A stretch of 64,000 nucleotides of DNA from Acidobacteriota bacterium (GTDB lineage Bacteria > Acidobacteriota > Vicinamibacteria > Vicinamibacterales > UBA8438): positions 32,521 through 96,520 of the forward strand of contig WTFV01000150.1 in assembly GCA_011523845.1 (NCBI GenBank). The letters are read 5' to 3'. The notes beneath the pieces were generated by a model. The model was not told the origin of the DNA and searched no databases. It saw nothing but the letters and a program-made list of their open reading frames with translations. The position numbers and the translations under genes were made by a program. This document shows positions 16,790 through 36,547 of the stretch, one piece after another (position 1 is the first letter of the stretch; every line of letters starts with the position of its first letter).

Positions 16790-18562
16790 TCAGGCCGTGT
16801 ACTCGTAGTCGAACACGCACGACGCGCCAATCATCTCGCGAAACCACAACGTGGCGCGGGCGCCCTGCGAATCCGTCAGGTGAACTGGCTCGTTCAGAAC
16901 GAAACGCACCGGCTGGGTCTGGCCGTCGTTGATGGCCACGTTGTTCGCGTAGAGGTACGTGCGATCCAGCGCATCGAGCTTCGGATTGAGCCGCCCCTGA
17001 ATGCCCGGCAGATGCCGCGTTCGGTCGGCGATGACGAGCGATCCCCCGTTCGGGGCCGGCTGCAGGCGAACCTCCAGGGGCTCGCCGGGCTGATAGTCGC
17101 GCGCCACGTGCGCCATGAATCCCGTCGCGGCGCAGAACACGGTCATCGGCAGCTTGGCGTAGAGCACGAACTCGGCCCGCCCAAAGGCATCCGTCCGCGC
17201 CTCGCGATACGTCTTGTTGGGATAGAGCATCAGCACGTCGACACCCGGCAGCGGCTGGTCCGTGTCTCCGCGCCTGACCACGACGCGAACCGCGACGCCG
17301 TCGGACACCGGCAACCGCGCCGCCGGCAGGACGACCTTCAGTTCCCGCTCGCCGATCAACGTGAAGACCGGCCGTTCGCCGGCGAGGGCGAACGTCTCGT
17401 CCTGAATGACGCCGATGCCTTCGCCGCGCCGTTCGATGAAATACTGCCGCCCGCCCGCGCCCGGCACATCGCCCACCGGGCACTGGCCCAGCCGGGACGC
17501 CAGCAGCTCGTTGCGCGTGAACTGGCTGGTGCGCAGGTCGTCGGTCGTCATCGAATTGCAGAGCCCGCCCGGCGAATACAGCTCCAGCCGATCGTCGAAC
17601 ATGAACAGGCGTATCCGCGACCCCGACACCGCGTAGTCGCGATGCACCACCGCGTTGACAACCGCCTCGAAGACCGCGCGTTCGCTGAACTGCGGGACGT
17701 CGATACGCGCCGGGTCCTTGTACGCCGCCACACGCCGATTGCGGACCACGAAGCGCACCGCCTCGCGAATCTGCTCGTCGAGCGGACCGGTGACGTCCCG
17801 CGCGTCGAGTTGCCGGCCCGCGTCCATGCGGTCGCCGCTGTAACACACGGCCTGAATCCACGCGTTCGGCAACCATTCCCGCGCGTCGTCCACGGCCAGC
17901 AGCACCCCGCCGACCGTCGCCCGCAGCGCACCGTGCCGATCGTCCTTCAGGAACTTCAGCTTGGACAACGCGATCTCGGCCGGTTCGTCCATGCGCGAGC
18001 TGACATACTGGCGCCACAGCGCCGGGCGCAAGCTGCCGATCCCGGTGTTCCGCACGACCTGCGTGTCCGTCGCAGTCGCGTCGGACTGCCCCCGCGCCTG
18101 AGACAGCCGGCGGACCTCCGCGGAATCCATCTGCCGCTTCTTGTCACCCCGCCGGCGAAAGTATCCGCCGGGAGATCGGTGCACCGTTGCACTCTCCGGA
18201 ATCTCGACGACCAGCACACCACCCTTCCCGGACCCCGGCGCCTGCACCCGGAAGATGCTGAAGTCCAGCGGCGGCTTGATGCTGTCCGAACAGATCTCCG
18301 TCACCAGATTCGCCAGTGCGTCCAGTTGCGCCGGATCGAGCGACTGCGGTTGCCTGTCGTCCGATACGCCAAGGACGAGACGGCCGCCGCGGGCGTTGGC
18401 GAACGCCGCGAACTCGTCGGCAAGATCGTCGCGCCGGGGCCCTGACACACTGCTGCCGCGGAATCGAGCTTCCTTCAGCTCGAGATCCGTGTCTTCACCG
18501 AGGGCGATCTGTTTCCACAGGCGCTGTTCTTCGATTGGCATGGCCGCCGGACCACCCAGCAT
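16790..18562 (-). CDS. AlbA_2 (Schlafen-like) + HATPase_c_4 domain protein with extra C-terminal beta-rich domains
   Basis: DLELKEARF...EFAAFANARGGRLVLGV (AlbA_2), NAVVHRDYAVSGSRIRLFMFDDRLELYSPGGL (HATPase_c_4-type), then VRVVVRRGDTDQPLPGVDVLMLY...TDAFGRAEFVL (carboxypeptidase-regulatory-like). An alternative start lies at 18541 (MPIEEQ). Confidence 0.75.
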   Translation of the reverse strand: MLGGPAAMPIEEQRLWKQIALGEDTDLELKEARFRGSSVSGPRRDDLADEFAAFANARGGRLVLGVSDDRQPQSLDPAQLDALANLVTEICSDSIKPPLDFSIFRVQAPGSGKGGVLVVEIPESATVHRSPGGYFRRRGDKKRQMDSAEVRRLSQARGQSDATATDTQVVRNTGIGSLRPALWRQYVSSRMDEPAEIALSKLKFLKDDRHGALRATVGGVLLAVDDAREWLPNAWIQAVCYSGDRMDAGRQLDARDVTGPLDEQIREAVRFVVRNRRVAAYKDPARIDVPQFSERAVFEAVVNAVVHRDYAVSGSRIRLFMFDDRLELYSPGGLCNSMTTDDLRTSQFTRNELLASRLGQCPVGDVPGAGGRQYFIERRGEGIGVIQDETFALAGERPVFTLIGERELKVVLPAARLPVSDGVAVRVVVRRGDTDQPLPGVDVLMLYPNKTYREARTDAFGRAEFVLYAKLPMTVFCAATGFMAHVARDYQPGEPLEVRLQPAPNGGSLVIADRTRHLPGIQGRLNPKLDALDRTYLYANNVAINDGQTQPVRFVLNEPVHLTDSQGARATLWFREMIGASCVFDYEYTA

Positions 18563-18686
18563 TACCGCATCGCCTCACTGAGCCAGTCTCCGACGGCACG
18601 CTGCTCCCACTCCACGTACTCGCGGGGAGTTCGCCAGAATACCCTCCAAGCCTCATTGAGCAGCAGTCGACCAGATCCCTTCGTTT
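18562..18686 (-). pseudogene. Displaced 3' end (38 codons + stop) of the HExxH gene, cut off by the IS insertion
   Basis: GC-rich in-frame tail ..TKGSGRLLLNEAWRVFWRTPREYVEWEQRAVGDWLSEAMR* with no start codon. Its TAA overlaps the ATG of the AlbA_2 gene (TAATG). It joins in frame to 22092 when 18687-22091 (3405 nt) is removed. Confidence 0.8.
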
Positions 18687-18709
18687 GGGGATTATATACC
18701 GTCCTAGCC
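18679..18709. repeat. Left target-site duplication (cttcgttt, 18679-18686) + left terminal inverted repeat (18687-18709)
   Basis: IRL is ggggattatataccgtcctagcc. The reverse complement of IRR is ggggattatataccatcctagcc (22/23 match). Confidence 0.9.
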
Positions 18710-18819
18710 TAACGCTATCTCCCGAATATGCATTAGTTTATCCTGGCTGTCGTCGAGAACGGTCAACATCGGCACATGTTCGACGCAGCGCTGTCACCGG
18801 TTGTCGAGCCGTGCTCAAT

Positions 18820-19053
18820 TCAAGATAGAATGACAATTCCCCCCCCATGTATATTTCCAGTACGGTCACCGAGGCTGAATTGAACCTTAACACAGTGACC
18901 GTCCCAACCGTTACCTTCAACCTCAACATCATCAACGGCCAGCCCAATTGGTTTCTTAATGTGTTGCACACCTGCTTTCTCTCTTTTGGGTAGGTGGAAC
19001 CCTAGCACGAGCTTTGCCAGCATGTCAAGATTTCTAGCGTGCGCAGTCAGCAC
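18820..19053 (-). CDS. Hypothetical cargo ORF (77 aa), weak
   Basis: Track ORF in the AT-rich element, divergent from 19087..19668. No recognisable motif, and a competing ORF 18738..18971 overlaps it. Confidence 0.25.
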   Translation of the reverse strand: MLTAHARNLDMLAKLVLGFHLPKREKAGVQHIKKPIGLAVDDVEVEGNGWDGHCVKVQFSLGDRTGNIHGGGIVILS

Positions 19054-19086
19054 GCCGATTGAGAACCTGGACTCACGCTACTTGTA

Positions 19087-19668
19087 ATGGACAAATTCTC
19101 AAAACTAGAGTACACTCTTGAGATGAATTTCTCTGCTTTGCCAATTCGTTGGGGTGAACTTCTCTCGACTATCCTTCCTGGTGCTTGGGCATTGACGGCC
19201 ATTCTTCCGTATTTGCCGGAATTTACGGAGTGGCTATCTCAAGGCTCTCTAGCACAGGCGATGGTTATAATTGCAGCGGCAACACTCTTGGGCGGTTCTA
19301 TTAGTGGCTTCACTCGTTTTACTTGGGAATATGGTCTTTTTGCGTTTAGTGATTTCAAAGTGAAACCACTTTCTCTAGTGGTTACTGACTCAGAGAAGAT
19401 GAAATTGTATGAGTTTTTGTTGGACAATTCTTATAAATGGGTTGGGTGTCACGCCAATACTGGGTGGGCGACACTTTTGGTTTTGTTGAGTCGACTGCAA
19501 CGCTGCCCTTCCGAATTGGGAATCATAGAACTTGCATTATCTGTTGCGGTTGTGATATTATTTACAGCTTCGTATGTCCAATGGTGGATATACGTAGACC
19601 ATATGAATACTGCATTTGGCAGCAACGGAGGAGAGCATGTTCAGGAACGTACCACAGACGGGGTCTAG
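19087..19668 (+). CDS. Hypothetical integral membrane protein (about 4 TM), IS cargo
   Basis: 193-aa ORF with hydrophobic segments LLSTILPGAWALTAILPYL, AMVIIAAATLLGGSISGF, GWATLLVLLSRL and IIELALSVAVVILFTASYVQWWIY. Confidence 0.6.
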   Translation: MDKFSKLEYTLEMNFSALPIRWGELLSTILPGAWALTAILPYLPEFTEWLSQGSLAQAMVIIAAATLLGGSISGFTRFTWEYGLFAFSDFKVKPLSLVVTDSEKMKLYEFLLDNSYKWVGCHANTGWATLLVLLSRLQRCPSELGIIELALSVAVVILFTASYVQWWIYVDHMNTAFGSNGGEHVQERTTDGV

Positions 19669-19831
19669 GATTAAGGCCATCACATCTACGAGAGAATTCA
19701 AGCTAGGTGATGAGGGTACCTTGCGGGCACCGCTGGCAGACTACTACGTAGATCGCGCCGAGGATTTATTTGAGGCTGAATTCTTCGGTCGAATCATAGT
19801 AGTTCGTCGGGGTGACGTTGAGTTGACCTAA
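19637..19831 (+). CDS. Hypothetical small protein (64 aa), IS cargo
   Basis: ATG after GGAGGAG (aacggaggagagcATG): MFRNVPQTGSRIKAITSTREFKLGDEGTLRAPL... It overlaps the end of the membrane-protein gene. Confidence 0.5.
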   Translation: MFRNVPQTGSRIKAITSTREFKLGDEGTLRAPLADYYVDRAEDLFEAEFFGRIIVVRRGDVELT

Positions 19832-19877
19832 GATTCTGAACAGGGCTAGTGCGTGGCGATCCACTGGCTCTGTTGTC

Positions 19878-20813
19878 TTACTTCGCCGGTCGTGCCGTTG
19901 AAGAAAGGCCGTTCTCTCGAATAAGGTCCTTGTACCGCAATCTCTTGTCCTCAGCCAGAAACACCATCACCTGCATCTGCTCAATCGTATCCAGCGGCCG
20001 CTGGTTGTGCCGACCCTCGAATTCCTTGACATAGCGGTCCAAGTGCTTCGGGCTCATTTTGTGGTAGACCCCAATATAGCCACGCTTCATCATGCTCCAG
20101 AATGACTCCATGCCGTTCGTATGAGCTTGCTCCCTGACGTATTCTCCCGTCGAATGAGATACAGCCTCGCGATTCGGAACACCACTGTAAGTTGTCGCTG
20201 TATCTGTGTAGACCTTGGTCCCATCTTCCACATTCTCTTGAATGAAACCTTTGAGAGTCCGACCGTCGGTATTCTCAACTACCTTCGCTCTGACCCGACC
20301 CGTCCCTCGTTCCTTCATCCCAACGACAGCCGTCTTGTTGACTGGTCCTCGACCCTCCTCCTGTTTACGCTTCCACGCGTGCTTGTTCTTCGCCTTGCCA
20401 CCGAAATACCCTTCATCTACTTCAACAGCGTTCTCAAAATCACCTGCCTCTTCGTCCCGCCAGGTCTCCCGAATCCGATGCGCCAGATGCCACGCTGTCT
20501 TTTGGGTCACGCCCAGGTCCCGATGCAACTTCATCGAGGACGTCCCCTTGAGCCCAGTTGCCAGAAGGTAGAACGCCAGCGCCCAGGTCTGGAGACCCAG
20601 GTTGGAACCCTGCATGACCGTCCCAGTCTTGACGCTGAAGTGCTTCCGGCAATCTCGACACCGATAGGGCATCGGCTTTCGATTCTCGACCTTCCGAATA
20701 TTCAGCGAGCCGCACTGCGGGCACGCTATACCGTTAGGCCAGCGTGTTTCGATGAACCACTGCTCCGCGGCTTCCTCGGTGGCGAACATGCGCACGACTT
20801 CCATCAGGGTCAT
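19878..20813 (-). CDS. IS1595-family transposase (N-terminal Zn-ribbon + ISXO2-like DDE domain)
   Basis: MTLMEVVRMFATEEAAEQWFIETRWPNGIACPQCGS...YRCRDCRKHFSVKTGTVMQGSNLGLQTWALAFYL...VEVDEGYFGG...VYTDTATTYSG...HSTGEYV...HTNGMESFWSMMKRG. The longer track ORF (to 21074) runs through the tRNA and is rejected. Confidence 0.9.
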   Translation of the reverse strand: MTLMEVVRMFATEEAAEQWFIETRWPNGIACPQCGSLNIRKVENRKPMPYRCRDCRKHFSVKTGTVMQGSNLGLQTWALAFYLLATGLKGTSSMKLHRDLGVTQKTAWHLAHRIRETWRDEEAGDFENAVEVDEGYFGGKAKNKHAWKRKQEEGRGPVNKTAVVGMKERGTGRVRAKVVENTDGRTLKGFIQENVEDGTKVYTDTATTYSGVPNREAVSHSTGEYVREQAHTNGMESFWSMMKRGYIGVYHKMSPKHLDRYVKEFEGRHNQRPLDTIEQMQVMVFLAEDKRLRYKDLIRENGLSSTARPAK

Positions 20814-20977
20814 GCCCTTGCGCCAGTGCTTGCCGGGTGCGTTTCGTGCCACTGCGAGCCTCCTAGCCAGTCTAGGGGAAAGATATCGCAGTTGACAGTC
20901 CTCGACAAGCTGTTCTGGTACAGGTTTTGCTTGACTTGCAGCGGGCGGACCGGACAGACTTCGTGGCGGTGGAGGGG

Positions 20978-21061
20978 TGTGGGCGACGGGATTCGAACCC
21001 GCAAGACCTGCTGGCCAGCGGCTTTCTAGGCCGCCGCGTATTCCAGTTCCGCCACGCCCAC
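20978..21061 (-). tRNA. Class II (long variable arm) tRNA, anticodon loop CUAGAAA = apparent anticodon AGA; Leu/Ser-type body, A73, no encoded CCA
   Basis: Hand fold: GTGGGCG-TG-GCG-GAACTGGAATA-CGC-G-GCGGC-CTAGAAA-GCCGC-TGGCCAGCAGGTCTT-GCGGG-TTCGAAT-CCCGT-CGCCCAC-A. 7-bp acceptor stem, T8, A14, G18G19, canonical T-loop. Confidence 0.65.
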
Positions 21062-21460
21062 GCTGCTCCGCCATCTACTAGCTCTCATCCCTCTACCTCC
21101 TTGCCCAACATGGGCTTTGACCGTTCAATTCATTCTAGCAGAATCCTCGTGATGGTGATTGGTTTCAAGGCGAAGAAACGGCAAATGACAGGTTTCTGTC
21201 AGCGACGCCCTGTTAGCTTGACATTCATGCTTGATCTGTGGAACGCTACTCCTTGCCACGCGATTCGTGTACGACCCGACGCCGGGTCGCCCACCAAATA
21301 CAAGACTGCCCGTACGGGCAGGAATAGGTGGGGATCCCGCATGTACGTGCGCGAATCGTGTGGCAACTGGCCCGGTGACCAATTCCGGGCTGGCCCGTTG
21401 GCGTCCGTCGTCCAGGGTTTCGGTTGTCCGGAAACTCGGCGCTGGAAAGGACGTGCCACA

Positions 21461-21829
21461 ATGTTCCTTAACAGTCTACTTTATAGTGGGATTGCAGTTA
21501 TTATCGTGGTGGGTGCATATTTGTTACTTGATGGCAGAGACTTCTCTATGTCCAACTACTACTACCAAATGGGCAGAGACGATATATTGGCTGGACAGGA
21601 GTATCCTCCAGGTAGTATTTCGTGTGGAGAGTTGCCTGATGTTATTCAGCGCGTTGTAGATGAGCAGATGAGTAGTGGGGTCAATTTGGACCGTATTCGT
21701 GGCAGAATTGACGTTCAGTTTGATATGGTGAAGAATAGATGCGGAATGGGTCCAACTCGAATAGAGGGTAGTGGTTTGCCGCTAACACCCGAGGATAGAC
21801 GAAGGCGACTGCTGGAGGGTCTCCGTTAG
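21461..21829 (+). CDS. Hypothetical protein with N-terminal TM helix (122 aa), IS cargo
   Basis: MFLNSLLYSGIAVIIVVGAYLLLDGRDF...; the internal ATG of the 20927..21829 track ORF where AT-rich coding begins. Confidence 0.5.
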   Translation: MFLNSLLYSGIAVIIVVGAYLLLDGRDFSMSNYYYQMGRDDILAGQEYPPGSISCGELPDVIQRVVDEQMSSGVNLDRIRGRIDVQFDMVKNRCGMGPTRIEGSGLPLTPEDRRRRLLEGLR

Positions 21830-21880
21830 TGCTTGACTTGCGTGGTAGAATGTTGGCGGTCGAAATCAGGAGGTAGTGTG

Positions 21881-22054
21881 ATGCCGTCAAAGCTCAAGAT
21901 ACCACCCCGCATCCCGGACACTCCGGAGAACATCGCCCTAGCTTGTATGCAAGGTCCACCGAAAAAGAAATGGCGCCATCTGGAAGAGTCGGGGTTGGTG
22001 GCTGATGACCCTTCGCTCGAAGAGTACGAGGAGAAGGAGCCTTCTCGAGAGTAG
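21881..22054 (+). CDS. Hypothetical small protein (57 aa), IS cargo
   Basis: ATG after AGGAGG (aggaggtagtgtgATG): MPSKLKIPPRIPDTPENIALACMQGPPKKKWRHLEESG... Confidence 0.45.
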   Translation: MPSKLKIPPRIPDTPENIALACMQGPPKKKWRHLEESGLVADDPSLEEYEEKEPSRE

Positions 22055-22060
22055 TGGGTG

Positions 22061-22091
22061 GGCTAGGATGGTATATAATCCCCCTTCGTTT
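22061..22091. repeat. Right terminal inverted repeat (22061-22083) + right target-site duplication (cttcgttt, 22084-22091)
   Basis: ggctaggatggtatataatcccc followed by cttcgttt. The IRR supplies the last 6 codons and the TAG stop (GDYIPS*) of the truncated HExxH gene. Confidence 0.9.
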
Positions 22092-23100
22092 CCCGTCCGA
22101 CGATGTCGCAGTCCAGCGCGCGCGTACCCTCGAAAGCCAAGCCCTCAACTCGGCTGACGAGCTCTATTGGGAAGCAGCGTCGGTACTCTGGGGACGCCTC
22201 GCTGCCGCTCAACCCAAGGTACTCCTCCCACCGGCGCTCAATCGCGGCCCGCTCTTCATCAAAGCCGAGGCGTTCCAAGGCCAGAAGCATAGCCGTCATG
22301 CGCGCCGCGTCGGGTGGATGAACCGTGGGTGTCACGAGCGGAACCTCGAAGGGGTCTGCACCCACACTGGCCGCGAGGTGAAGGTGCGACCACGCAAACG
22401 CCGGACCGGCCATGTAGACGGCGTAGAGGTCACAGAAGAGTTCAATCGCCCACGAAAGCCAGCAGCCGATCCACGTCATCAAGTATTGTTTGAAGGTCTC
22501 CGGGCCTAGCCCAGCGTCCTCTTTGCGTAGCTCGCCCGCGAGGTACCCGTGGGCGTCGCTCACGGCTTCGACATGCCGCTTCTGAAAGCCCTCGAGACGC
22601 GCATCGTCTTCGAACTCCAGCAGTGAGTGCGCGAGCTCGTGGTAGAGATCCGGCAAGTGCAGCAGGAACCGCCCCTCTGCCAGCGGCACACAGACGAGCC
22701 GGAGGTCGGGGTACGTGTGGAAGTACCGCTGCGAGGCACAGGAGACCACAGGGGTTGGCAGTGGATAATGGATCTCTCCGGCCAGACGATCAGCGATCTG
22801 GTTCATCCAGCGATCTTCCGCGTTCCATCGGCACAGAGCGGTGACTGCAACCGACTCAAGGTGGTCTAGCTCACCCCGCACCCGACGAAAGAGGCGCAGG
22901 CGCTCCCGCTGATTGTCGGACTCCCTGAGTTCCGGACGATCGCGCAAGAGGCGAAGGCGCTTGCCGACTATCTTCAGGCGGTCGCGACATGCGACCTCGA
23001 GAGCAGCGACCTCCCGCCCGAGTCCGGCTGGAATCAAGTCGCACAACTGCCGGGTGCGCTCCAGCAACTGGGACACCGCCCCCTCGAAGTACTCGTTCAC
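22063..23100 (-). CDS. HExxH-motif protein (putative zincin-like), last gene of the Argonaute cassette; C-terminally truncated by the IS (345 aa now, 377 aa reconstructed)
   Basis: GTG start overlaps the upstream stop (GTGA 23097-23100). VNEYFEGAVSQLLERTRQL...; LHLPDLYHELAHSLL (H154-E-x-x-H158). Ends ..DIVGRETK + GDYIPS* encoded by the IS end. Confidence 0.75.
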   Translation of the reverse strand: MNEYFEGAVSQLLERTRQLCDLIPAGLGREVAALEVACRDRLKIVGKRLRLLRDRPELRESDNQRERLRLFRRVRGELDHLESVAVTALCRWNAEDRWMNQIADRLAGEIHYPLPTPVVSCASQRYFHTYPDLRLVCVPLAEGRFLLHLPDLYHELAHSLLEFEDDARLEGFQKRHVEAVSDAHGYLAGELRKEDAGLGPETFKQYLMTWIGCWLSWAIELFCDLYAVYMAGPAFAWSHLHLAASVGADPFEVPLVTPTVHPPDAARMTAMLLALERLGFDEERAAIERRWEEYLGLSGSEASPEYRRCFPIELVSRVEGLAFEGTRALDCDIVGRETKGDYIPS

Positions 23101-23462
23101 GTCCCAACGCCCCTCATCTTGGCGAGGGCTTCGGTTCGTCGCTCTTCCAGTCGTCGTGCGAGTTCTCGCAGCTTGTCCACGACTTCGGGGTCGACTGTGG
23201 TCGACAGCAGGGCGCGGCCTACGCATTCCCATTCCTTGCGGGCGCTCGGGTCCGCGCCACCGATGAGCATCCCCAGCCAAGCCGTGCGGAGGTCTGGTGG
23301 CGGAGCTACCGCAACACCGACCAGCAGTTCGCCGAGCTCCCGACGGGATGCATCTGTCCGTACGTCCGCCGTGGAACTCAGCCCGAGGATAACCTCGTCG
23401 ATGAGCTCGCCGTAGTCTCGCACTCGCTGGTACACGTTCGAGTGGACACCGATGTCGCTCAT
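23097..23462 (-). CDS. Hypothetical helical protein (121 aa) coupled to the Argonaute gene
   Basis: ATG overlaps the Argonaute stop (ATGA 23459-23462), preceded by GAGGAGGTGG. MSDIGVHSNVYQRVRDYGELIDEVILGL... Confidence 0.7.
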   Translation of the reverse strand: MSDIGVHSNVYQRVRDYGELIDEVILGLSSTADVRTDASRRELGELLVGVAVAPPPDLRTAWLGMLIGGADPSARKEWECVGRALLSTTVDPEVVDKLRELARRLEERRTEALAKMRGVGT

Positions 23463-25849
23463 GCCACCTCCTCGGCGGTCTCGCCGCCCACCACCGCCGC
23501 ATCTGCGAAATCGACCGCGTCTACGTCGTACTCTCCCGCCGCGGCCGCAAGGATGCGGTCGTTCAGCTTGATGGTGATCGGGTACCGGGTACAGCCCTCG
23601 GGCTGCGTCCAGGTCAGCGCAGTCAGGGAGTAGAGATCCTCCAGTGCCTCGGAAAAGGAAAGCGTGCCGTCGACCATGATGACGTGCAGCGGGTGGGCGG
23701 TGCCTTGACGGAGAAAAGGGTAGCCGGTCGAGCAGACGTACGCTTCCTGATCGCCGACGTAATATGTGGCGCCGACACTCGGGTTGTCCCCGAGCAACCC
23801 TCCACGGCCATTCGGCCGGACATCGTACAGGCGAAGCGGTACGGGTGACGACTTTGAAATTTCGATGACCGCGTAGCCGGTGTCGGGTGCGAGGCAGCCC
23901 TCTGAGCGAAGTTGGCGGATTGCACGACGGACACCGTCCAGCTCCGAGGGCCACGCCCGCCCGTCGCGGTGGACTACGACCTTGGAAAGCGGGGCGCCAC
24001 GAGCCCCCGCTTCCCTGCGCAATACCTCCACAAGATACGTCGACATCTGGGCCGCGAGCAGTCGCTCCTTCTGGCGAGACGTGTGGACGTCCGACCGGAT
24101 GTTGCTACCGTGCGCGCCGACGACCAGGAGACCGGCACTGTTGTTCTTTACGTCCACCCCGACCGTGACGTCCGCGTGAAGTGGAGTCGCAAGGACAAAC
24201 GGCCATCGCTGATTCGTCAGGAGCAGCTTCGCGATCACGACGTTACGCAAGTAGCCGGCCAGCTTTCTTCGAAGTGCCGGAACAGGCCCATAAACGACGT
24301 GACCGTCCTTGGCTCGCTCCTCGCGATAGGTGTGCCGTGGAACGTCGCTGTGGATGACGGTAGCTCGGACGTCGTGCTGTTGCCGAAGCTCCCGGACGAC
24401 CATCGCGGCAAGTTGGTCCTCGTCGCGGTTCTGTCGTCCGACGGTACGGTGCACCATGACTAGCGCATATCCGGGTCGTGAGCACTTGGCCGCCGTCGCA
24501 GCTCGCACTGCAAGAGCCTGGCGTACGAACGTCCGCTGGCCACGATCGGCATAGGGCACAATGATGGGCTTGTAGCCGCCGGGTTGAGGGAAGAACTCGT
24601 CGACAGCCTTGGAGAGATCCTCAATGAGCCGCGCGCCGATCGTATCGTAGATGCTCTCCGGAAGAATGAGATACTGCCGGTCGAGCGGCGCGGACTCATG
24701 AAAGCCCACTGTTTGGTCCCTGAGGAGCTCCAGCCTGCGGCTTCCGAAGTCGTTCGGCCTCGCTTGAACGGCTCCCCGCGTACCGCGAGCAGAAAGGACC
24801 GTATTCTTGCCGAATGCGAGATCGGGCAACTTGAAACCTTGGAGTGCGACCCGCAGTGGCTCGGTGGAGACGCGCACGCGTGCGTTTCCGAATTGAAGCG
24901 CGCGAAGGTACCGATCCACGAAGGCTCGGGTTTGGTTCCGGCGTTGATGGGGAGGCAGGATGGTTCTGCCGTGCTGGCCCGCAACCTCCTTGCTATTCGT
25001 GCGGAACACGGGATAGCACAGTGGCGCGGGCGCCGCAAGCTCAGCGCCCCGATTGTTCAGATAGAGAACGGCCGCAGAATCGGCAGGTAGGTTACCCAGA
25101 TCCGACGGAAACGGTCGGCGCGCCTGATCGAGAATGTACTCGAGCAACGACCAAGTTCTCCCCTTCGTGACGAAGCGGTATTCCTGTACGTTCCTGTCGG
25201 CCAGGGCGTGAAGATGAACCTCGTACCAGTCTTGGCCGAAGCGGTACACGCAGTTGCGACCCTTCCAGCGGGCGGCGAATTCGTTGCGTGCCAGCCGCGC
25301 CGGGAGCGGACGGGCGCTGACGTAGCAGTGGTGCACGTCGACACAGAGACCAATGCCCGCCTCGGGAGTTAAGACAGGCCGCACGCTGAAGCCCACGTAA
25401 CGATGGATGCCGCGGTCGTTCTGCGCCGGATTGCGCTCGAAGAACGGGCGTCCAGATTGCAGTTGCCAAAGCCGTGCATCGCGTCCGAGCGGGGCCTGGA
25501 CCAGGAAGCGAAGAAACCGCAGGGAGATCGCGTCATCCGGCCCTCGCTTCGAGTAGTCAAGGTCGACTCCTTCGTCACGAGGCCGAAGCTGAACGACGAC
25601 GCGCACAAGCTCGACTTCCGAGGGAAGCGTGGCGACATCTTCGGAAACGACGACGAAAGGGATATCGCCGCGTTCGATTACAAGTACAGCCTTCCTGAGC
25701 GAATAGCTGAGCCGCCGTTCGAGCGCTTGGCGATTTTGGAAGTACTCGGCTTGGTCTCGGCGCAGGCCGGCGACCTCGACGAGCCTGTACCGCGTCGACA
25801 ACTCGCCCAGGTTCGTGATGGAATAGATGTTCGTTTCAAGCTGCCTCAT
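23459..25849 (-). CDS. Long prokaryotic Argonaute (pAgo, 796 aa) with PAZ-like, MID and PIWI regions and an apparent DEDD catalytic tetrad
   Basis: From MRQLETNIYSITNLG. PIWI signatures: TVGVD566V, QKE595RLL, VVVHRD629GR, LTWTQPEG..YPITIKLND764RILA. MID/PIWI linker YLRNVVIAKLLLTNQRWPF. PAZ-like NCVYRFGQDWYEVHL...WSLLEYIL...CYPVF. Confidence 0.85.
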   Translation of the reverse strand: MRQLETNIYSITNLGELSTRYRLVEVAGLRRDQAEYFQNRQALERRLSYSLRKAVLVIERGDIPFVVVSEDVATLPSEVELVRVVVQLRPRDEGVDLDYSKRGPDDAISLRFLRFLVQAPLGRDARLWQLQSGRPFFERNPAQNDRGIHRYVGFSVRPVLTPEAGIGLCVDVHHCYVSARPLPARLARNEFAARWKGRNCVYRFGQDWYEVHLHALADRNVQEYRFVTKGRTWSLLEYILDQARRPFPSDLGNLPADSAAVLYLNNRGAELAAPAPLCYPVFRTNSKEVAGQHGRTILPPHQRRNQTRAFVDRYLRALQFGNARVRVSTEPLRVALQGFKLPDLAFGKNTVLSARGTRGAVQARPNDFGSRRLELLRDQTVGFHESAPLDRQYLILPESIYDTIGARLIEDLSKAVDEFFPQPGGYKPIIVPYADRGQRTFVRQALAVRAATAAKCSRPGYALVMVHRTVGRQNRDEDQLAAMVVRELRQQHDVRATVIHSDVPRHTYREERAKDGHVVYGPVPALRRKLAGYLRNVVIAKLLLTNQRWPFVLATPLHADVTVGVDVKNNSAGLLVVGAHGSNIRSDVHTSRQKERLLAAQMSTYLVEVLRREAGARGAPLSKVVVHRDGRAWPSELDGVRRAIRQLRSEGCLAPDTGYAVIEISKSSPVPLRLYDVRPNGRGGLLGDNPSVGATYYVGDQEAYVCSTGYPFLRQGTAHPLHVIMVDGTLSFSEALEDLYSLTALTWTQPEGCTRYPITIKLNDRILAAAAGEYDVDAVDFADAAVVGGETAEEVA

Positions 25850-26777
25850 CGGCCTTCTCCCAGCAGATCTTCTGGTACGCGCAACGCTGACAGACGTTGG
25901 GCCATGCCGTGACCGCGAAGTCTTCGGCGCGGAGGTCGCCGTTCTTGAGACCGTCCGTCGCAGCGAGCATCTCTGTCGCGCTCGCCGCCACGTAGTCCTC
26001 AAGCTCGTCGAAGTCCGCTGAATCCAAGGCATACTCGTGCTCGATTCCTGAAAGCAGTTGCGCCTCGACGAGCCGGTAGTCTGTCGGCGTAAACTCCGTC
26101 AGGACCGGCGGAAAGTCGCGGTGTGGGGTGCAGCGCGACAGCGACAGCGCGTACAGGGCCAATTGGAGCCGGTAGTCGCGAGTACCGAACGAATGGACTT
26201 TCCAGTCTACGATGAGCGGGGGCGCTTTCTCGTTGAATGCAATCACGTCGGGGACCGCGACAACCGACACGCCGGCGAATTTGAACTGCAGAGAACGCTG
26301 GGCGACCACGTACGAAGCGCGCTTCAGGGCGGCTCGCAGCCCGTCCATCTTGAACACGTTGTCAATCGCCGTTTGGATGTCCTGCCACGCCTGCGCAATC
26401 TCCTCCTGTCGTATGCCGTGGCCGTACTCGATCGCGCGGAAGGCTGCAACTGCGTCGTTCTTGGAAAGCTCCAGCGCAGGCTCGTGGATGCGATTGTTGA
26501 TCGCGAAGTCCAGCTCCCGCTCGAAGCAGACTTTGGCGGCAGTGCGGAGGTCCGCCTTCGTGATTCGCTGGCCCCGCCTCAAAGCCAGCACGAGTCTCTC
26601 GCTGAGGATTCTGTCGACGAGCCTGCCGCGCCACCCGCTCACGCTCTGGAGCTTCGAAAGGAGGTAGGCCGTCCGACGCTGCCGATCCTTGGCCACGGCG
26701 CTTGCAAGGCAATTCTTGAAGAACCAGCTCCGCTGGCACTGCCGAAAAGCACGCGCCGCCGAGAAGGACCACCTCAT
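25836..26777 (-). CDS. Cas4-like PD-(D/E)XK nuclease with four-Cys (Fe-S) signature
   Basis: 313 aa. C14 ... D177 (AVPDVIAF), D191-W-K193 (LIVDWKV), Q205xxxY209 (QLALYAL), C296-x2-C299-x5-C305. Its 3' end overlaps the pAgo start by 14 nt, and its ATG overlaps the XRE stop (ATGA). Confidence 0.8.
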   Translation of the reverse strand: MRWSFSAARAFRQCQRSWFFKNCLASAVAKDRQRRTAYLLSKLQSVSGWRGRLVDRILSERLVLALRRGQRITKADLRTAAKVCFERELDFAINNRIHEPALELSKNDAVAAFRAIEYGHGIRQEEIAQAWQDIQTAIDNVFKMDGLRAALKRASYVVAQRSLQFKFAGVSVVAVPDVIAFNEKAPPLIVDWKVHSFGTRDYRLQLALYALSLSRCTPHRDFPPVLTEFTPTDYRLVEAQLLSGIEHEYALDSADFDELEDYVAASATEMLAATDGLKNGDLRAEDFAVTAWPNVCQRCAYQKICWEKADEAA

Positions 26778-27127
26778 CTCCCCGACCTCCGCCCTTGGCG
26801 CGCGCGCAAGAACTCAAGGTACTCCGCAAGGGCCTCCTCCTCGTCAGGGGTCACGTCGCCGAAACGCGCTAGCCCCGTTGGAGCTAGCTCCCGTTCGGGA
26901 AAGCCCGGAACGGGGTAACCAGCGAGACGCATCGCCTTGGCGTACGAGACACGGTACAGCTCGCTAAGCTTGTGCAGGATGACAGGCGAAGGCTGACGGA
27001 TCCGACCGTGTTCGAGCTGGCTCAGGTAGGCGTTGGAGACATCCGTCTGTTCCTCCACCGCGCGTAGCGACATGGAGCGCCGCTCTCGTGCGTTTCTCAG
27101 GAAACCTGCCAAGGCTCCGTGACTCAT
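26774..27127 (-). CDS. XRE-family helix-turn-helix regulator, first gene of the Argonaute cassette
   Basis: LRNARERRSMSLRAVEEQTDVSNAYLSQLEHGRIRQPSPVILHKLSELY is a canonical HTH_3 pattern. 117 aa. Confidence 0.85.
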   Translation of the reverse strand: MSHGALAGFLRNARERRSMSLRAVEEQTDVSNAYLSQLEHGRIRQPSPVILHKLSELYRVSYAKAMRLAGYPVPGFPERELAPTGLARFGDVTPDEEEALAEYLEFLRARQGRRSGR

Positions 27128-27133
27128 GCGCTA

Positions 27134-27167
27134 ATCATGTCAAGCGCCGCAAAATATGTCAAGCGCC
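27134..27167 (-). promoter_or_regulatory. Putative promoter/operator of the Argonaute cassette: two 12-bp direct repeats GGCGCTTGACAT, 19 bp apart
   Basis: The minus strand reads GGCGCTTGACATattttgcGGCGCTTGACATGATtagcgcATG. The distal TTGACA lies 17 nt before CATGAT, which ends 6 nt before the ATG (possible leaderless transcript). The repeats could be XRE operators. Confidence 0.4.
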
Positions 27168-27446: not shown

Positions 27447-30227
27447 CTACGCACGCTGCACGGCTGCGCGCGTCATGGCCTGGTCGTACCACATCAGCAG
27501 CTTCGGATCCTCCTGGAGCACGTCCTCCGGGATCTTGCGAGCGACCTCGACGATCGTGGCGTAGTCCCGAGCCTGCCATGCCTTGCGGAAACCGGCGCGG
27601 ATCGCTTCCAGGCGGAACAGCTTCAGGCGTCGCTCCGTGGAATGCCGGTACTCGTCGAACTCCCGGAGCAGGCCGCGGGTTCGCCACTCGTCGAGGTCGC
27701 TCGCCTTGCGGGGATCCGGGACGTACCAGCGGTCCTTCGCCTTGGCGCGAAGGGCGAACGCGTCCTTCGGCAGGTTGCGGAGCTCCTTGAAGTTGCCGGA
27801 CAGGTAGGCGTGAATCTGGCTCGGCACCTCGCCTCGGCCATCGTACCGCAGGAAGTTCTGCTCCAGGAACGCCGACAGCTCGATCATCCGCTCGTGCTTC
27901 TGCCAGCCGCCGAGCTCGCGGATGAACTGCGGATGGATCTCCTGGAAGGTCTGCGGCTTCCTCCCAAGTTGTTGGCGCAACCACTGGATGGCGGTCTCCT
28001 CGTCCCTGACGAAGAGCTCGAGCTGCACCAGTTCGCGAGCCGCCAGCCGTCTGGAATCGTACTCCACGACCTGCTCGGGCAGGAAGAACATGCCGTCCCG
28101 CTCCGGAAAGCGTTGCGTGAGCCCTTCGTGGAATTCAGTGGCAGAGAGCGGAACGGTGACACCGCGTTGCACGTGGAAGGCGACCATGCGGTCGAACAGC
28201 AGGTAGCTCTGGCGCTCGGCGATGACCTCGGCCCGCCCTTCCCTGGCCACGAATACCGGAAGCTGGCGCATGTGGGTGCTGACGAAGTCCCAGGCGCCGT
28301 CCGCGGTCCCGGCCTGCGGTCGGAAACGGTCTTCCAGCCCGCCGTTCGGCTTGTAGGCGGAGATCACCAGATCCTGCTTGACCGCGGTGCTCGTGACCTG
28401 CCGGTAGGAACCCTGCTGCTTGTCGAGCGTGCGGACGTCGGCGACCACGAAGCCGGCCGCCAGCATGGCTTCCTGGATGGCGTTCCAGATCGCATTCCTA
28501 GAGTTGTGGAAGACGACGGTGATCCACCGGCCGGGTTTTAGGACGCGACGGTACGCTTCGAAGCAGTGCTGCATCAGGCGCTGGTAATCGACGACGTCCT
28601 TACCCTTCGGCCGGTCGACGATGGCCTCGGTCTCGCTACGCGTGCGGGTGCGGTGCCAGGATTCGACGAGGTGGTTGAGGTCGGCGTAGAAGATGTTCTC
28701 TCCGAAGGGCGGATCCGTGAACACGTAGTCGACGGAGTCGTCGGGCAGGGCGTTGGCGCCGCAATCGCTGGTCGAGATCATCGCGAGATCCGGGCGCGAA
28801 ACTGTCGGCTTGAAGGCCCTTGCGAGACGCTGCAACTTGCCATCGAGAATATACCATGGACACACTTCTGCAATTTGCGAGGCCACATAGTAGACTCCCG
28901 ACAGTTGACGATTCACCTGAGAAAAGTGGGAAGGGCCGTAGCGATTCAGTACCGACATACCCCAAATTGCCTGCTCCACGAAGAACAAGAGCATGCTTCT
29001 CAATCGGTTGTCTTCGCATTCATCTACACGCCGCCACATCGCCGCCAGCACATGCGCCGCCCGCGGCAGGAACAGGTGGTGCACATGCGTGAAGCCCTTC
29101 GGCGCCAGACGCGAGCCGTGGTACATCTCGTCGATGGGAAACGCGTCGGTTGGGACCTCGGACGGCAGCGGGAGACCGGCGATGCGGTCGAGAACGCCCA
29201 GATCGGCAGAGTCCGGTTCCTTCTCGTAGCGCGCATCGCCCACGCTGTAGTTGATCAGCACGGGCCGGAGACGAATACGTTTCCACGGCCGGCCCGACGC
29301 GGGATCGGCGAGCGTTTCGAACGACCGCACGAAGTTGTTCTTGGTCAGCTTCACGGCGCAGTGCGGACAGGGAAACGTGGATCTCGTGCGCCGGGTGGCC
29401 TTGTCGAGCGCCTCGTCGAAGAACACGACTTCGCCCGCGCAGTCCGGGCAGGAGAAGACCTCGCTCCACACCGTGTAGTTGATTCGCCCCGTGGTCCGCC
29501 CGTCGGCGTGGAGCGTGTCGTACATCCAGCCGATCTCCTCTTCGACCTCCGTCAGGAGTTCGGAGGCCGCCTCGCGGAACGCGGTGACGTCGAACGGCAG
29601 GTTGTAGTTGGCGGCGATGAAGGTGGCGGCCGGCGACAGATCGCCGAGAATCACGCGGCGGGCGCCCCATGCCGGCGGGTTCCGCTCTTCCCCCTTCCAG
29701 CGTTGTTCGAGGTCCTTCCGATAGGCGGGCGGCGCCGTGCCGCACCATTGCGCGGCGACGCCGGTCATGCCGGAGCCGCAGAATCCGTCCAGAACGATGT
29801 CACCCGGTCGCGTGTAGTGGAGGATGGACGGGACGATCGCCAGGTGCGGCACCTTGGTGTGGTACCCGTGCGCCCGATAGAGAGGGTCGGTCTTGCCGGC
29901 GCTGACGTCGACGGCGAACGGCTCGCGGTGATACGGCTCGTCGGGATCGTAGTGACGGCCGTGGCGCTCGACGAACTGCGCCAGGAACGGATTCGGACAA
30001 GCCGTGTAGTACGGCGGATCGGACAGCCGCAGGATGGCATCATCATCTGCCATCGGAAAATCGGGTCGTTGCCGCAACTCGGGTAGCTTCTCCTTCAGTC
30101 GCGCCAGGAAATACTGCCGGCGCGCCTCCTCCGACTCGAAGGTCAACCCGAGGCACTCCACGCGTGCCGATTCGCCCGTCGCGGCGGACTCCGACAGGAG
30201 ATCGGGCGTCGGATTACGGCTGGCCAC
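27447..30227 (-). CDS. pglXI: BREX type 3 DNA methyltransferase PglXI-like (N6/N4 methylase family)
   Basis: 926 aa. SD70PPYY, LDGFCGSGMTG (AdoMet motif I-like), Cys4 ribbon CPDC...CPHC, and a second catalytic-type tetrapeptide FTD505PPFG. Confidence 0.75.
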   Translation of the reverse strand: MASRNPTPDLLSESAATGESARVECLGLTFESEEARRQYFLARLKEKLPELRQRPDFPMADDDAILRLSDPPYYTACPNPFLAQFVERHGRHYDPDEPYHREPFAVDVSAGKTDPLYRAHGYHTKVPHLAIVPSILHYTRPGDIVLDGFCGSGMTGVAAQWCGTAPPAYRKDLEQRWKGEERNPPAWGARRVILGDLSPAATFIAANYNLPFDVTAFREAASELLTEVEEEIGWMYDTLHADGRTTGRINYTVWSEVFSCPDCAGEVVFFDEALDKATRRTRSTFPCPHCAVKLTKNNFVRSFETLADPASGRPWKRIRLRPVLINYSVGDARYEKEPDSADLGVLDRIAGLPLPSEVPTDAFPIDEMYHGSRLAPKGFTHVHHLFLPRAAHVLAAMWRRVDECEDNRLRSMLLFFVEQAIWGMSVLNRYGPSHFSQVNRQLSGVYYVASQIAEVCPWYILDGKLQRLARAFKPTVSRPDLAMISTSDCGANALPDDSVDYVFTDPPFGENIFYADLNHLVESWHRTRTRSETEAIVDRPKGKDVVDYQRLMQHCFEAYRRVLKPGRWITVVFHNSRNAIWNAIQEAMLAAGFVVADVRTLDKQQGSYRQVTSTAVKQDLVISAYKPNGGLEDRFRPQAGTADGAWDFVSTHMRQLPVFVAREGRAEVIAERQSYLLFDRMVAFHVQRGVTVPLSATEFHEGLTQRFPERDGMFFLPEQVVEYDSRRLAARELVQLELFVRDEETAIQWLRQQLGRKPQTFQEIHPQFIRELGGWQKHERMIELSAFLEQNFLRYDGRGEVPSQIHAYLSGNFKELRNLPKDAFALRAKAKDRWYVPDPRKASDLDEWRTRGLLREFDEYRHSTERRLKLFRLEAIRAGFRKAWQARDYATIVEVARKIPEDVLQEDPKLLMWYDQAMTRAAVQRA

Positions 30228-32091
30228 GTCGTTCGTCTTCCGGCCTGCCGAGCCGGGCGGCCTTGAGCGCGGCGCCGGCTTCAGTCAGAACGTAACGCTG
30301 AGCCGCCGCCGACGGCTTGCCCGGAATCGTCATGCGCAGGATGCCGCCTTCCAGCAACGGATCGACGTGCCGTGTCTTGAAGAGGCTGCGGTCGGTCTCG
30401 CCGATCGCCGCCATGACGTTGGCGAGGCGGCGGGGGACGTCACAGAGTTCGACAATCCGCCATTGGGTCGCCGAGAGCGTGGTCAGCAGCTTCGCCGAGT
30501 CACCGGATGGCTTAGACGATATCGGACCGTCTCCTGCCGTGGACGACTCCGCAGTCGTGGAGTTGTCACGATCAGCGGCCGCGGTGGAAGGCGCCGGAAC
30601 CGAATCGCCGCCGACGTTGGCTTGCGCAAGTCGCGTACGCAGGTGGCCGGCCATGACGTATCGGTCGCCGGCGCGTTCCAGCAGCACCTGCTTGACCAAC
30701 CGGTCTGCGACCGCAGCCGCTTCCGGGCCGGAAAGACCCGTCACCGCCTTGATGTGCGAAAGCGTCAAGTGCTGCTGGCGGCACGCGAACGCGACGGTTC
30801 GGGCCTCGTCGTCCGTGAGGCGGACACCGAGCTGTCCCTGGAACAAGAGCTGTTGTTCAGAGAGCAATGCCTCCCTGTTCAGCGCCAGCTCGAAGCTCCT
30901 GCGCCGCCGGTCGCTCAAAATCTGCGGCGGCACGTGTCCCAACTGCTGCCAGTTCCGGAACACGTCGCGCAGGCCCCACCCGGCATGCTCGCTTAGACCG
31001 ATGCGACGAAACGCGAGCACGATCCGGGGATTGCGCACCTCGCGTTCGCCGGGTTCGAGCAGGTCCGTGTCCGCGGCGAATGCGTCTCCCGGGTTCCAGA
31101 AGACCGTCTGGTCCGCATAGTGCCGGATGACCGCCTTGCGCGAATGGTCGGAGTAGTCCTGATGCATGATCAGGTTGATCATCGACTCGCGAAAGGCCCG
31201 GTAGTCCGGCGGCGTGTCGTCCCGGCGCAGCGTCGCGGGATCCAGGCGGAACGGGTGCTCCGCTACTTTCTCGTACCAGTCCTCGATGAGGGAGCGCCAC
31301 GTACGGATGAGGTTCTCGTCGAGAACGACACGGTCGAACCAGCGGTCGCCCGTGTCCGCGTCATCCCGAATCGCCGTGAACCGCTGGCAGTCCACCACGG
31401 GACGCGGCAGCAGTTGCCGAAAGGCCGGATTCGTCCCGAAGATCAGAACGGCCGCGCGCGTCGGCAGCCGCCGCCCACCCTGCTCGACCAGCAGACCCAT
31501 CTCGGCCAGGAAGTCCCCGTCGGACATCGCGGCGCACGAACGGTTCCCCGGCCTTGCCTCGTACACCGCCCGGTACCAGCGGATGGTGTCCGGGTCGAAT
31601 GCCGTGGCCGGATTCAGGTCGACGGCCTGACCGTCGGGACGTTCGGCTGCCGCGTCGATCAGGAACCCGTTGCGTTCCTGGTCCGAGCAGCGCACGTCGC
31701 TGCCGCCGCTGCGCACGAAGGCGCGGCGAATGTCGCCGTTCAGGAAAACGGGCTTCTGCGACCGATGCACTTCGGGCACGTAGAAGACGAGCAGGTCCGA
31801 TTCATCGTGCTTGTGCAGATCCTCCTCGACGTCGACCACGACGCTGATCTTGTCCGGCTGCCGCAACGTCGAGAGGAACTCGTTCTGCACCTTGTCGACG
31901 TCGAGCACGCCGACGATTTCCATCTCCCGGCCGCTCTTGCGCACGCCGAACACGAGATGTCCGCCCTCCGTGTTCGCGAACGCGGAGACCGTCTCGTATG
32001 CGTCGCGAGGCACCTTGCGTCGGGCTTCCTTGAACTCGACGTCATGCCACTCGTGCTTGCGAAGCAGCTCGATCAGTTCGTCCTGCGTCAT
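30214..32091 (-). CDS. AlbA_2 + HATPase_c_4 domain protein with C-terminal winged-helix region (paralogue class of 16790..18562)
   Basis: MTQDELIELLRKHEWHDVEFKEARRKVP...VSAFANTEGGHLVFGV; NLIMHQDYSDHSRKAVIRHY. The 3' end overlaps the pglXI start by 14 nt. The track ORF N-terminal extension (to 32205) is rejected. Confidence 0.75.
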   Translation of the reverse strand: MTQDELIELLRKHEWHDVEFKEARRKVPRDAYETVSAFANTEGGHLVFGVRKSGREMEIVGVLDVDKVQNEFLSTLRQPDKISVVVDVEEDLHKHDESDLLVFYVPEVHRSQKPVFLNGDIRRAFVRSGGSDVRCSDQERNGFLIDAAAERPDGQAVDLNPATAFDPDTIRWYRAVYEARPGNRSCAAMSDGDFLAEMGLLVEQGGRRLPTRAAVLIFGTNPAFRQLLPRPVVDCQRFTAIRDDADTGDRWFDRVVLDENLIRTWRSLIEDWYEKVAEHPFRLDPATLRRDDTPPDYRAFRESMINLIMHQDYSDHSRKAVIRHYADQTVFWNPGDAFAADTDLLEPGEREVRNPRIVLAFRRIGLSEHAGWGLRDVFRNWQQLGHVPPQILSDRRRRSFELALNREALLSEQQLLFQGQLGVRLTDDEARTVAFACRQQHLTLSHIKAVTGLSGPEAAAVADRLVKQVLLERAGDRYVMAGHLRTRLAQANVGGDSVPAPSTAAADRDNSTTAESSTAGDGPISSKPSGDSAKLLTTLSATQWRIVELCDVPRRLANVMAAIGETDRSLFKTRHVDPLLEGGILRMTIPGKPSAAAQRYVLTEAGAALKAARLGRPEDERRGQP

Positions 32092-32125
32092 GCCGTCGTT
32101 CCGAGACGATTCGCATCCTGCCGGA

Positions 32126-36516: not shown

Positions 36517-36547
36517 TTCCGTTCCAGTGGTGTGCCGACGACCAACC

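Follow-up and report, generated by a model that had tools for sequence, protein, structure and literature searches.

A long prokaryotic Argonaute (pAgo) of the PliAgo group, encoded together with four partner genes, lies within a type 3 bacteriophage exclusion (BREX) locus in the stretch of contig WTFV01000150.1 analysed here (64,000 nucleotides, "the window"), which comes from an Acidobacteriota metagenome-assembled genome. The five overlap-chained genes of this cassette occupy the minus strand at 22063-27127, with PglXI on one side and a Schlafen-ATPase/PglZ/BrxA block on the other. The cassette is probably an autonomous, horizontally mobile operon that landed as cargo downstream of PglXI, and the best reading of its position in the BREX locus is embedding as cargo, passed on within one lineage. 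The arrangement looks like defence-island stacking and not like a new fused system. A sequence-only reading of the window had described five co-directional genes chained by start/stop overlaps, which the minus-strand reading and the list of open reading frames (ORFs) bore out at every junction: ATGA at 26774-26777 (XRE regulator and nuclease), a 14-nt overlap at 25836-25849 (nuclease and pAgo), ATGA at 23459-23462 (pAgo and a 121-aa protein) and GTGA at 23097-23100 (121-aa protein and a protein with an HExxH motif). The elements of the cassette are:

27129-27166, minus strand: promoter with two tandem 19-nt operator-like repeats (GCGCTTGACATatTTtGCG / GCGCTTGACATgaTTaGCG), directly upstream of XRE
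26774-27127, minus strand: XRE regulator, 117 aa (Pfam HTH_31 1e-10, HTH_3 1.9e-10)
25836-26777, minus strand: Cas4-family PD-(D/E)XK nuclease, 313 aa (PADLOC Aga_Cas4-like_Nuc 1.6e-112, full length; Pfam PDDEXK_1 2.8e-14)
23459-25849, minus strand: long pAgo, 796 aa (PADLOC pAgo_II 4e-271, full length)
23097-23462, minus strand: 121-aa protein without family match, in the slot between the pAgo and HExxH genes
22063-23100, minus strand: HExxH protein (motif HELAH), 345-aa ORF of which 22084-23100 (codons 1-339) are native

The Argonaute and its nuclease

The initial identification of the 796-aa protein as a long pAgo and of its upstream neighbour as a Cas4-like nuclease is upheld by the PADLOC matches listed above and, for the pAgo, by full-length alignment to solved structures. 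The closest of these are PDB 7R8F-7R8K (residues 3-785 on 4-785 of 7R8K, E 3.8e-143). We take them to be structures of Pseudooceanicola lipolyticus PliAgo, with a residue numbering that matches PMC9360449; the PDB table says only "Argonaute". The window protein is a full-length long pAgo homologous to PliAgo (N-L1-PAZ-L2-MID-PIWI). Its DEDD tetrad (D566, E595, D629, D764) aligns with D563, E592, D626 and D762 of PliAgo and is invariant, together with K568, in an alignment of 27 homologues, and the group-specific PliAgo lysines K565 and K759 are matched by identical residues (in DVK and IKLND). As judged from its residues, the window pAgo is a catalytically competent long pAgo of the PliAgo group. 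HpeAgo, too, was reportedly placed in the PliAgo "D-R" group by Lisitskaya and colleagues in 2022.

Long-B pAgo-nuclease (BPAN) systems likewise pair a pAgo with a PD-(D/E)XK-type nuclease. The catalytic tetrad is missing, however, from long-B pAgos, which switch on the nuclease as an effector, whereas the DEDD tetrad of the window protein is intact and invariant, which argues for an active long pAgo; an assignment to the long-B/BPAN type was dropped on these grounds. No relative of the pAgo was found in viral contigs.

According to the text and legends of PMC9360449 (2022), enzymes of the PliAgo group use DNA guides to cut RNA, which was established in vitro for PliAgo and RslAgo, and their genes are preceded by genes for a PD-(D/E)XK Cas4-like nuclease and a helix-turn-helix (HTH) regulator. 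The window has the same two upstream genes. As far as that source describes the PliAgo-group operon, the two thus have in common full-length homology, the DEDD tetrad, the lysines beside the first and last catalytic residues, and the upstream nuclease and HTH genes; the operon of the window differs in that it lies inside a BREX locus and has its last gene cut by an insertion sequence (IS).

The translated nuclease contains one N-terminal cysteine and a C-terminal CxxCx5C motif. Two groups of Cas4-family partners of long-A pAgos have been described, ACE1 and ACE2, the latter with a mean length of 313 aa and belonging to the uncharacterised APACE2 systems (PMC12094033). APACE systems likewise combine an active long pAgo with a Cas4-family nuclease carrying a 1+3 cysteine pattern, and the window nuclease agrees with the description of ACE2 in length (313 aa) and cysteine pattern; APACE1 differs from the window in being cyanobacterial, DNA-targeting and composed of two genes (PMC12094033). 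In a protein of 1104 aa (P0033), a Cas4-like nuclease is fused to a pAgo that is 47% identical to that of the window, which argues that nuclease and pAgo act as a physical complex.

Conservation of the five-gene operon

To survey pAgo homologues, we selected one genome per species, resulting in 80 loci from Acidobacteriota, Planctomycetota, Chloroflexota, Bacteroidota, Proteobacteria, Cyanobacteria, Verrucomicrobiota and some archaea, and searched them for partner genes by tblastn with the window proteins. The Cas4-like nuclease was present in all 80 loci, the XRE regulator in 76 and the HExxH protein in 75, with all five misses of the latter at contig edges. With a hidden Markov model built from homologues, a protein of about 120 aa was found in the slot between pAgo and HExxH genes in 78 of 83 loci. 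Gene order is constant across the surveyed loci and spacing is nearly so. The conjugative plasmid pRUNSL03 of Runella slithyformis provides an example annotated in RefSeq, with an HTH regulator, a PD-(D/E)XK nuclease and hypothetical proteins of 801, 125 and 378 aa, whose genes overlap by 4 nt except for a short gap ahead of the last one; presumably, this is the source plasmid of RslAgo. The same five-gene layout is found in the RefSeq annotation of a Rhizobium plasmid.

The composition of the cassette, for which the sequence-only reading knew of no precedent, is therefore the norm of the PliAgo-group operon, an already-described kind, and its first three genes (XRE, nuclease and pAgo) were published in 2022 (PMC9360449). 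Conversely, a PliAgo-group system consists of five conserved genes and a conserved operator and not of three genes. The proposed survey of pAgo neighbourhoods thus recovered the same partners throughout; BREX genes were not among them, as BrxC, BrxF and PglZ were absent within 10 kb of the pAgo in all 80 representative loci and linkage was confined to a few close relatives of the window.

Two recurrent neighbours of the cassette were observed. A set of multiubiquitin and ThiF genes (with or without DUF6527) lies just downstream of it in two unrelated hosts (pRUNSL03, our locus L168, 9232-11411; L085, 16100-18156), and PDC-S68, a RecD-like candidate defence protein, is a co-oriented upstream neighbour in several Bacteroidota loci (flanks of L062-L074; 8 of 93 flank proteins).

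A conserved promoter and operator

The cassette had been suggested to possess its own promoter, and TTGACA-17-CATGAT boxes are indeed found at 27162-27134, directly 5' of XRE. In the window, the two repeats cover both the -35 (TTGACA) and the -10 box (CATGAT), and their last base is 1 nt before the XRE start codon. Nearly all loci contain two GCTTGACAtAttTAGC-like sites at the same place, one over each box, that stop a few bases short of the ATG. In its strict form, the motif (GCTTG-N8-AGC) is found at most 130 nt upstream of XRE in 79 of 81 related loci across phyla, and 106 of its sites fall within these upstream windows compared to 203 in the 2.96 Mb searched. The -10 box ends about 6 nt before the XRE ATG, and TAGCAcATG is conserved (27125-27139, same position in about 80 loci).

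These conserved repeats at the XRE promoter argue for autorepression, XRE being the presumed autorepressor of the operon, and suggest a leaderless or near-leaderless XRE mRNA. By virtue of the conserved promoter/operator, the cassette also stands out as a separate transcription unit. XRE matches the PADLOC capH profile at 3.9e-7 (residues 10-109 on profile positions 11-100 of 103); generic XRE proteins give weak scores of this kind.

The BREX locus and its cargo slot

The G+C content of the window is about 70%, dropping to 60-66% in an island at about 14-37.4 kb and to 48-57% at 18.7-22.1 kb; the pAgo cassette has 62-65%, compared to 70-73% in the surrounding genome. Every island gene is carried by the minus strand, in the order small HTH protein, BrxF, BrxC, VapB, VapC, Schlafen-ATPase-wHTH (winged HTH) protein, PglXI, five-gene cassette, IS element, Schlafen-ATPase protein, PglZ and BrxA; a VapB-like gene and RtcB follow downstream of BrxA. 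Outside the cassette and the IS element, the features of the island are:

37068-37355, minus strand: small HTH protein, beside BrxF
36548-37033, minus strand: BrxF (PADLOC BrxF 8.5e-61)
32809-36564, minus strand: BrxC (PADLOC BrxC E=0; Pfam DUF6079, full length)
32126-32769, minus strand: VapB/VapC pair, Rv0623-like antitoxin and PIN toxin (Pfam PSK_trans_fac 1.5e-27, PIN 4.6e-17)
30214-32205, minus strand: Schlafen, GHKL-ATPase and wHTH protein on the upstream side of PglXI (Pfam SLFN_AlbA_2, HATPase_c_4, Fic-like_C); likely start 32091, giving 625 aa, as in the gene call of L081
27447-30227, minus strand: PglXI methyltransferase (PADLOC PglX/PglXI E=0, residues 10-921)
16790-18562, minus strand: Schlafen (AlbA_2) and GHKL-ATPase protein, 590 aa (Pfam SLFN_AlbA_2 7.9e-17, HATPase_c_4 1.3e-15)
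14747-16759, minus strand: PglZ (PADLOC PglZ 5.3e-266, full length)
14007-14747, minus strand: BrxA (PADLOC BrxA 1.8e-59)

The type 3 components BrxF, BrxC/PglY, PglXI, PglZ and BrxA are accordingly present, and the BREX core proteins align end to end with the PADLOC profiles. BrxHII is missing: tblastn with the BrxHII of a related locus found none in the 64 kb (best E 2.7), so that the description of a type 3 BREX-like locus without helicase holds, now including BrxA, which had not been listed. The position of the cassette between pglXI and the AlbA_2/pglZ genes was also given correctly, except that there are two AlbA_2 genes, which flank PglXI and the cassette. Proteins of the Schlafen-ATPase type adjoin BREX loci in at least 1017 taxa (PMC12839542), and the 590-aa Schlafen-ATPase gene is a known BREX-associated auxiliary.

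Linkage of the cassette to BREX recurs only in a few close relatives, and among 75 metagenomic PglXI loci (38-82% identity) none contained the cassette. The informative relatives are:

L084, pAgo 91%: PglZ-BrxA, cassette, Schlafen-ATPase gene, start of a PglZ gene
L166, HExxH protein 90%: arrangement as in L084
L083, pAgo 78%: cassette, Schlafen-ATPase gene, PglZ, BrxA
L082, pAgo 74%: Schlafen-ATPase gene, PglXI with internal stop, cassette, Schlafen fragment, PemK, PglZ, BrxA, RtcB
L164, 121-aa protein 86%: without BREX; same pAgo subclade as the window
L001, pAgo 72%: without BREX
L087, pAgo 64%: without BREX
L085/L086, pAgo 65%: cassette immediately following a BREX-related DUF499/DUF1156/PLD-SNF2 system; XRE HTH and operator lost

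In L082, BrxC is a 160-aa fragment beside transposases and the cassette is intact. In L084 (1-850) and L166 (1768-4911), PglZ-BrxA and not PglXI precedes the cassette; homology to the window begins 7 nt past the PglXI stop, and a second PglZ start follows the Schlafen-ATPase gene, which suggests rearrangement or duplication of the PglZ block. That the order in L084 is a circular or tandem assembly artefact was ruled out by L166, which shows PglZ-BrxA before the cassette too. L085/L086 have retained neither the operator nor the HTH domain of XRE but only a 62-aa ORF with a C-terminal remnant (8785-9076); the cassette starts 288 nt behind a DUF499/DUF7680/DUF1156-methyltransferase/PLD-SNF2 helicase system, and Peptidase_M78 and HTH genes lie downstream.

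Most relatives with both PglXI and PglZ encode a BrxHII of about 940 aa (PADLOC E=0) directly upstream of PglZ, and the interval between PglXI and BrxHII contains 0-4 kb of variable cargo. In L110, whose PglXI is the closest (82%), this cargo is SIR2; it is PDC-S68 in L093 (12739-16275), an NsnB-like ATPase in L097 and Schlafen-ATPase genes in L104, L105 and L126. The variety of cargo indicates that the pAgo cassette sits in a general cargo hotspot; the sequence-only reading that it occupies the brxHII slot is not supported, because cargo in relatives lies between PglXI and BrxHII while BrxHII directly precedes PglZ. BrxHII is also missing in six of 24 relatives without pAgo, and in L129 PglXI abuts PglZ, so that helicase loss is not tied to the cassette. 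In the window, the Schlafen-ATPase gene abuts PglZ, which makes helicase loss a separate event.

Genes embedded in BREX loci are frequent and 96.7% of them are co-oriented (bioRxiv 10.1101/2024.01.29.577857), and the "backup effectors" commonly linked to BREX include Schlafen-kinase-wHTH proteins and PIN RNases (PMC12839542, 2026 survey). Like the defence genes known from BREX loci (BrxU in pEFER, PMC8565348; bioRxiv 10.1101/2024.01.29.577857), the cassette is a complete, separately functioning type of module co-oriented between BREX core genes; the cargo of the window differs in being a pAgo operon. Defence-gene embedding had already been described. Argonaute is named as a linked module in neither of the two surveys: it is mentioned nowhere in the 2026 survey (PMC12839542) and is not listed among BREX cargo in the embedding preprint, which contains one passing, unrelated mention (bioRxiv 10.1101/2024.01.29.577857).

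Further observations concern the remainder of the island. In the window, the VapBC pair separates BrxC from the first Schlafen-ATPase gene, and BrxA is followed by another VapB-like gene (13687-13944); in L110, a VapBC pair 90-94% identical to that of the window comes after BrxA. The pair thus seems to move within the island. At the island edge (37385-38597), divergent PTPS (QueD-like) and QueC-like genes lie directly beside BrxF and could serve ordinary queuosine synthesis or be part of a 7-deazaguanine system for DNA modification. An Rfam scan of the island matched nothing apart from a tRNA within the IS element.

Two partner proteins without family or fold match

Whereas family searches assigned XRE, nuclease and pAgo, they left the other two cassette proteins without a family, and the AlphaFold and Foldseek analysis that had been proposed for these provided models and no significant fold match. 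The 121-aa protein has no Pfam, PADLOC or NCBIfam family, its only Pfam signal being a sub-threshold match to VMAP-M8 (E 0.004). AlphaFold2 (AF2) predicts a five-helix bundle (predicted local distance difference test score, pLDDT, 83.7), for which Foldseek against the PDB returned nothing significant, only generic helical bundles.

The HExxH protein belongs to a family of more than 369 members, all annotated as "hypothetical", with no Pfam domain and a typical length of 373-390 aa. Invariant residues are H154, E155, H158, E220, C223, D224, H241, H261, D264 and R267. The window protein has no match in Pfam, NCBIfam or PADLOC, Pfam searches with 62 family members at E<=1 revealed nothing consistent, and PDB sequence searches with the single sequence and with a profile resulted in coiled-coil noise only. 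The AF2 model (pLDDT 95.2; predicted template modelling score 0.91) comprises long N-terminal helices, a small three-stranded sheet right before the HExxH helix and a helical C-terminal half, a predicted topology of sheet and HExxH helix compatible with a minimal zincin; Foldseek against PDB and BFVD found no significant match (best E 0.05-0.5, TM<0.3). Our guess is that the protein is a metal-dependent hydrolase.

Regulators of the XRE family also share an operon with HExxH proteins in ImmR/ImmA, DdrO/IrrE and CapH/CapP. Unlike for ImmA, IrrE and CapP, no similarity to Peptidase_M78/COG2856 was detected for the window protein at the level of sequence or fold: Peptidase_M78 gave no match to it at E 0.01 and matched two of 62 family members at E 0.13, PADLOC capP gave none, and hhalign against a neighbouring Peptidase_M78 protein aligned only the motif (probability 3.7%). 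Moreover, the window HExxH gene is three genes away from XRE, unlike in these XRE-metallopeptidase switches, and is always accompanied by the partner of about 120 aa.

The text and legends of PMC9360449 name three genes and mention neither the gene of about 120 aa nor the HExxH gene nor the conserved operator. That the two downstream genes are universal PliAgo-group partners without family or fold match looks new, and we lean towards regarding their products as essential, so far overlooked parts of all PliAgo-group systems. A solitary, shortened gene of the HExxH family (79% identity) was observed in L165 (10001-11041) beside AbiEi/AbiEii with no pAgo nearby; it is probably the remnant of a deleted cassette.

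An insertion sequence truncates the fifth gene

The HExxH ORF at 22063-23100 is truncated, its final 21 nt (22063-22083) being part of an IS element:

18687-22083, no strand assigned: IS1595-family element, 3397 bp, 52% GC, with 14-bp perfect terminal inverted repeats (GGGGATTATATACC) and an 8-bp target duplication (AAACGAAG)
19878-20852, within the IS: IS1595-family transposase gene (Pfam)
20976-21061, minus strand: tRNA-Ser-like gene with anticodon AGA, inside the IS (Rfam tRNA 52.6 bits; also ARAGORN)
18562-18678, minus strand: 3' part of the HExxH gene cut off by the IS (final 38 codons and stop), the TAA overlapping the ATG of the Schlafen-ATPase gene

In-silico excision of the IS with one copy of the duplication restores an HExxH ORF of 377 aa matching the C-terminus of the family. 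The IS is missing from L084, relative to which the window has 3.4 kb extra. The 38 residues cut off include the nearly invariant L346, N347, A349, W350, F353, W354, P357, W363 and E364, and the cassette may be impaired in this genome through loss of this conserved C-terminal segment. Perfect inverted repeats and an intact target duplication indicate a recent insertion, which interrupts any transcript reaching from the cassette to the PglZ block.

The IS with its passenger tRNA-Ser-like gene has a Schlafen-type gene immediately downstream of its insertion site; in eukaryotes, Schlafens are known to cleave the tRNAs for Ser and Leu. The anticodon AGA is unusual for bacteria.

Proposed mechanism and rival explanations

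In the mechanism that we propose for the autonomous operon, XRE bound to the two operators over the -35 and -10 boxes would keep expression low. The Cas4-family nuclease would turn invader DNA into short 5'-phosphorylated single-stranded DNA guides, and the pAgo would load these guides and slice complementary invader transcripts. The helical protein of about 120 aa and the HExxH protein would be obligate partners; by analogy, we guess that the HExxH protein either lifts repression by XRE when infection or DNA damage is signalled, as ImmA, IrrE and CapP do with their XRE repressors, or is an effector acting further downstream. As stacked defences, BREX and the pAgo operon would probably work in parallel.

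Several points weigh against this account. PliAgo-group systems have no known function in vivo. The role given to the nuclease in making guides is borrowed from ACE1, an unrelated clade, and PMC12094033 itself warns that its conclusions need not hold elsewhere. The idea of a protease acting as derepressor has no homology support, given that the HExxH protein matches no peptidase family or fold. Cassette and BREX genes stay together down to about 74% pAgo identity, and in the 91% relative the HExxH stop overlaps the Schlafen-ATPase start, which is tighter than mere adjacency.

The last two points also belong to a functionally integrated BREX-pAgo composite, in which guide-directed recognition is coupled to PglZ and Schlafen effectors within one co-regulated super-operon and the pAgo module might replace BrxHII. 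In its favour, the genes all share one orientation and are closely packed, the window lacks BrxHII, the arrangement recurs at 91%, 78% and 74% pAgo identity, and the HExxH and Schlafen-ATPase genes overlapped before the IS was inserted; the tight ancestral packing, together with the second association in the 65% relative, where a cassette without XRE and operator follows a BREX-related DUF499/DUF1156/PLD-SNF2 system by 288 nt, keeps this composite alive. Co-orientation, however, is the rule for any BREX-embedded gene, the cassette of the window retains its own conserved promoter/operator, and pAgo and BREX were each found without the other in the 80 other pAgo loci and the 75 PglXI loci as well as in L164 from the same pAgo subclade. 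Six of 24 pAgo-less loci lack BrxHII anyway; where relatives have both, BrxHII follows the cargo rather than being replaced by it, and the L082 cassette is intact although only a fragment of BrxC is left and a stop codon interrupts PglXI. We thus consider the composite quite unlikely. Its stricter form, in which a helicase-less type 3 BREX captured the pAgo module to give the chain XRE-Cas4-pAgo-121aa-HExxH-Schlafen ATPase-PglZ-BrxA and guided recognition of invader RNA triggers the PglZ/Schlafen effectors in place of BrxHII, appears very unlikely, and the reading of the protein of about 120 aa and the HExxH protein as overlooked components is more likely than such functional capture. The suggestion that BREX and pAgo are wired into one super-operon is not supported in view of the promoter/operator in 79 of 81 loci, the 80 genomes without BREX, the separation by the IS and the BrxC fragment of L082.

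A decaying island, in which a helicase-less BREX and a pAgo operon with truncated fifth gene are inactive remnants kept by drift, would explain the missing BrxHII, the IS that removes 38 HExxH codons with nearly invariant residues, the erosion of BREX in relatives and the solitary HExxH fragment in L165. We regard it as unlikely: judged by their profiles, neither the BREX genes BrxF, BrxC, PglXI, PglZ and BrxA nor the first four genes of the cassette are shortened, the state of its repeats and target duplication makes the IS recent, and helicase-less type 3-like loci recur in several lineages and may work. Some apparent frameshifts in relatives come from low-coverage assemblies and are possibly sequencing errors (L083, a "5x" contig).

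Implications

The claim of a new fused defence system does not hold up. What the cassette adds is a pAgo operon to the known cargo of the PglXI-BrxHII hotspot in type 3 BREX, and a fuller view of the PliAgo-group unit, which comprises a repressor with its operator, a Cas4-family nuclease, the pAgo and two uncharacterised partners, one of them a metal-site protein without recognisable fold relatives. To our knowledge, work on the DNA-guided bacterial Argonautes that target RNA has been limited to purified enzymes; reconstitution of a PliAgo-group system in vivo should take in all five genes. For asking whether co-resident BREX and pAgo interact, the relatives with and without the IS, an intact BREX or XRE provide a natural series.

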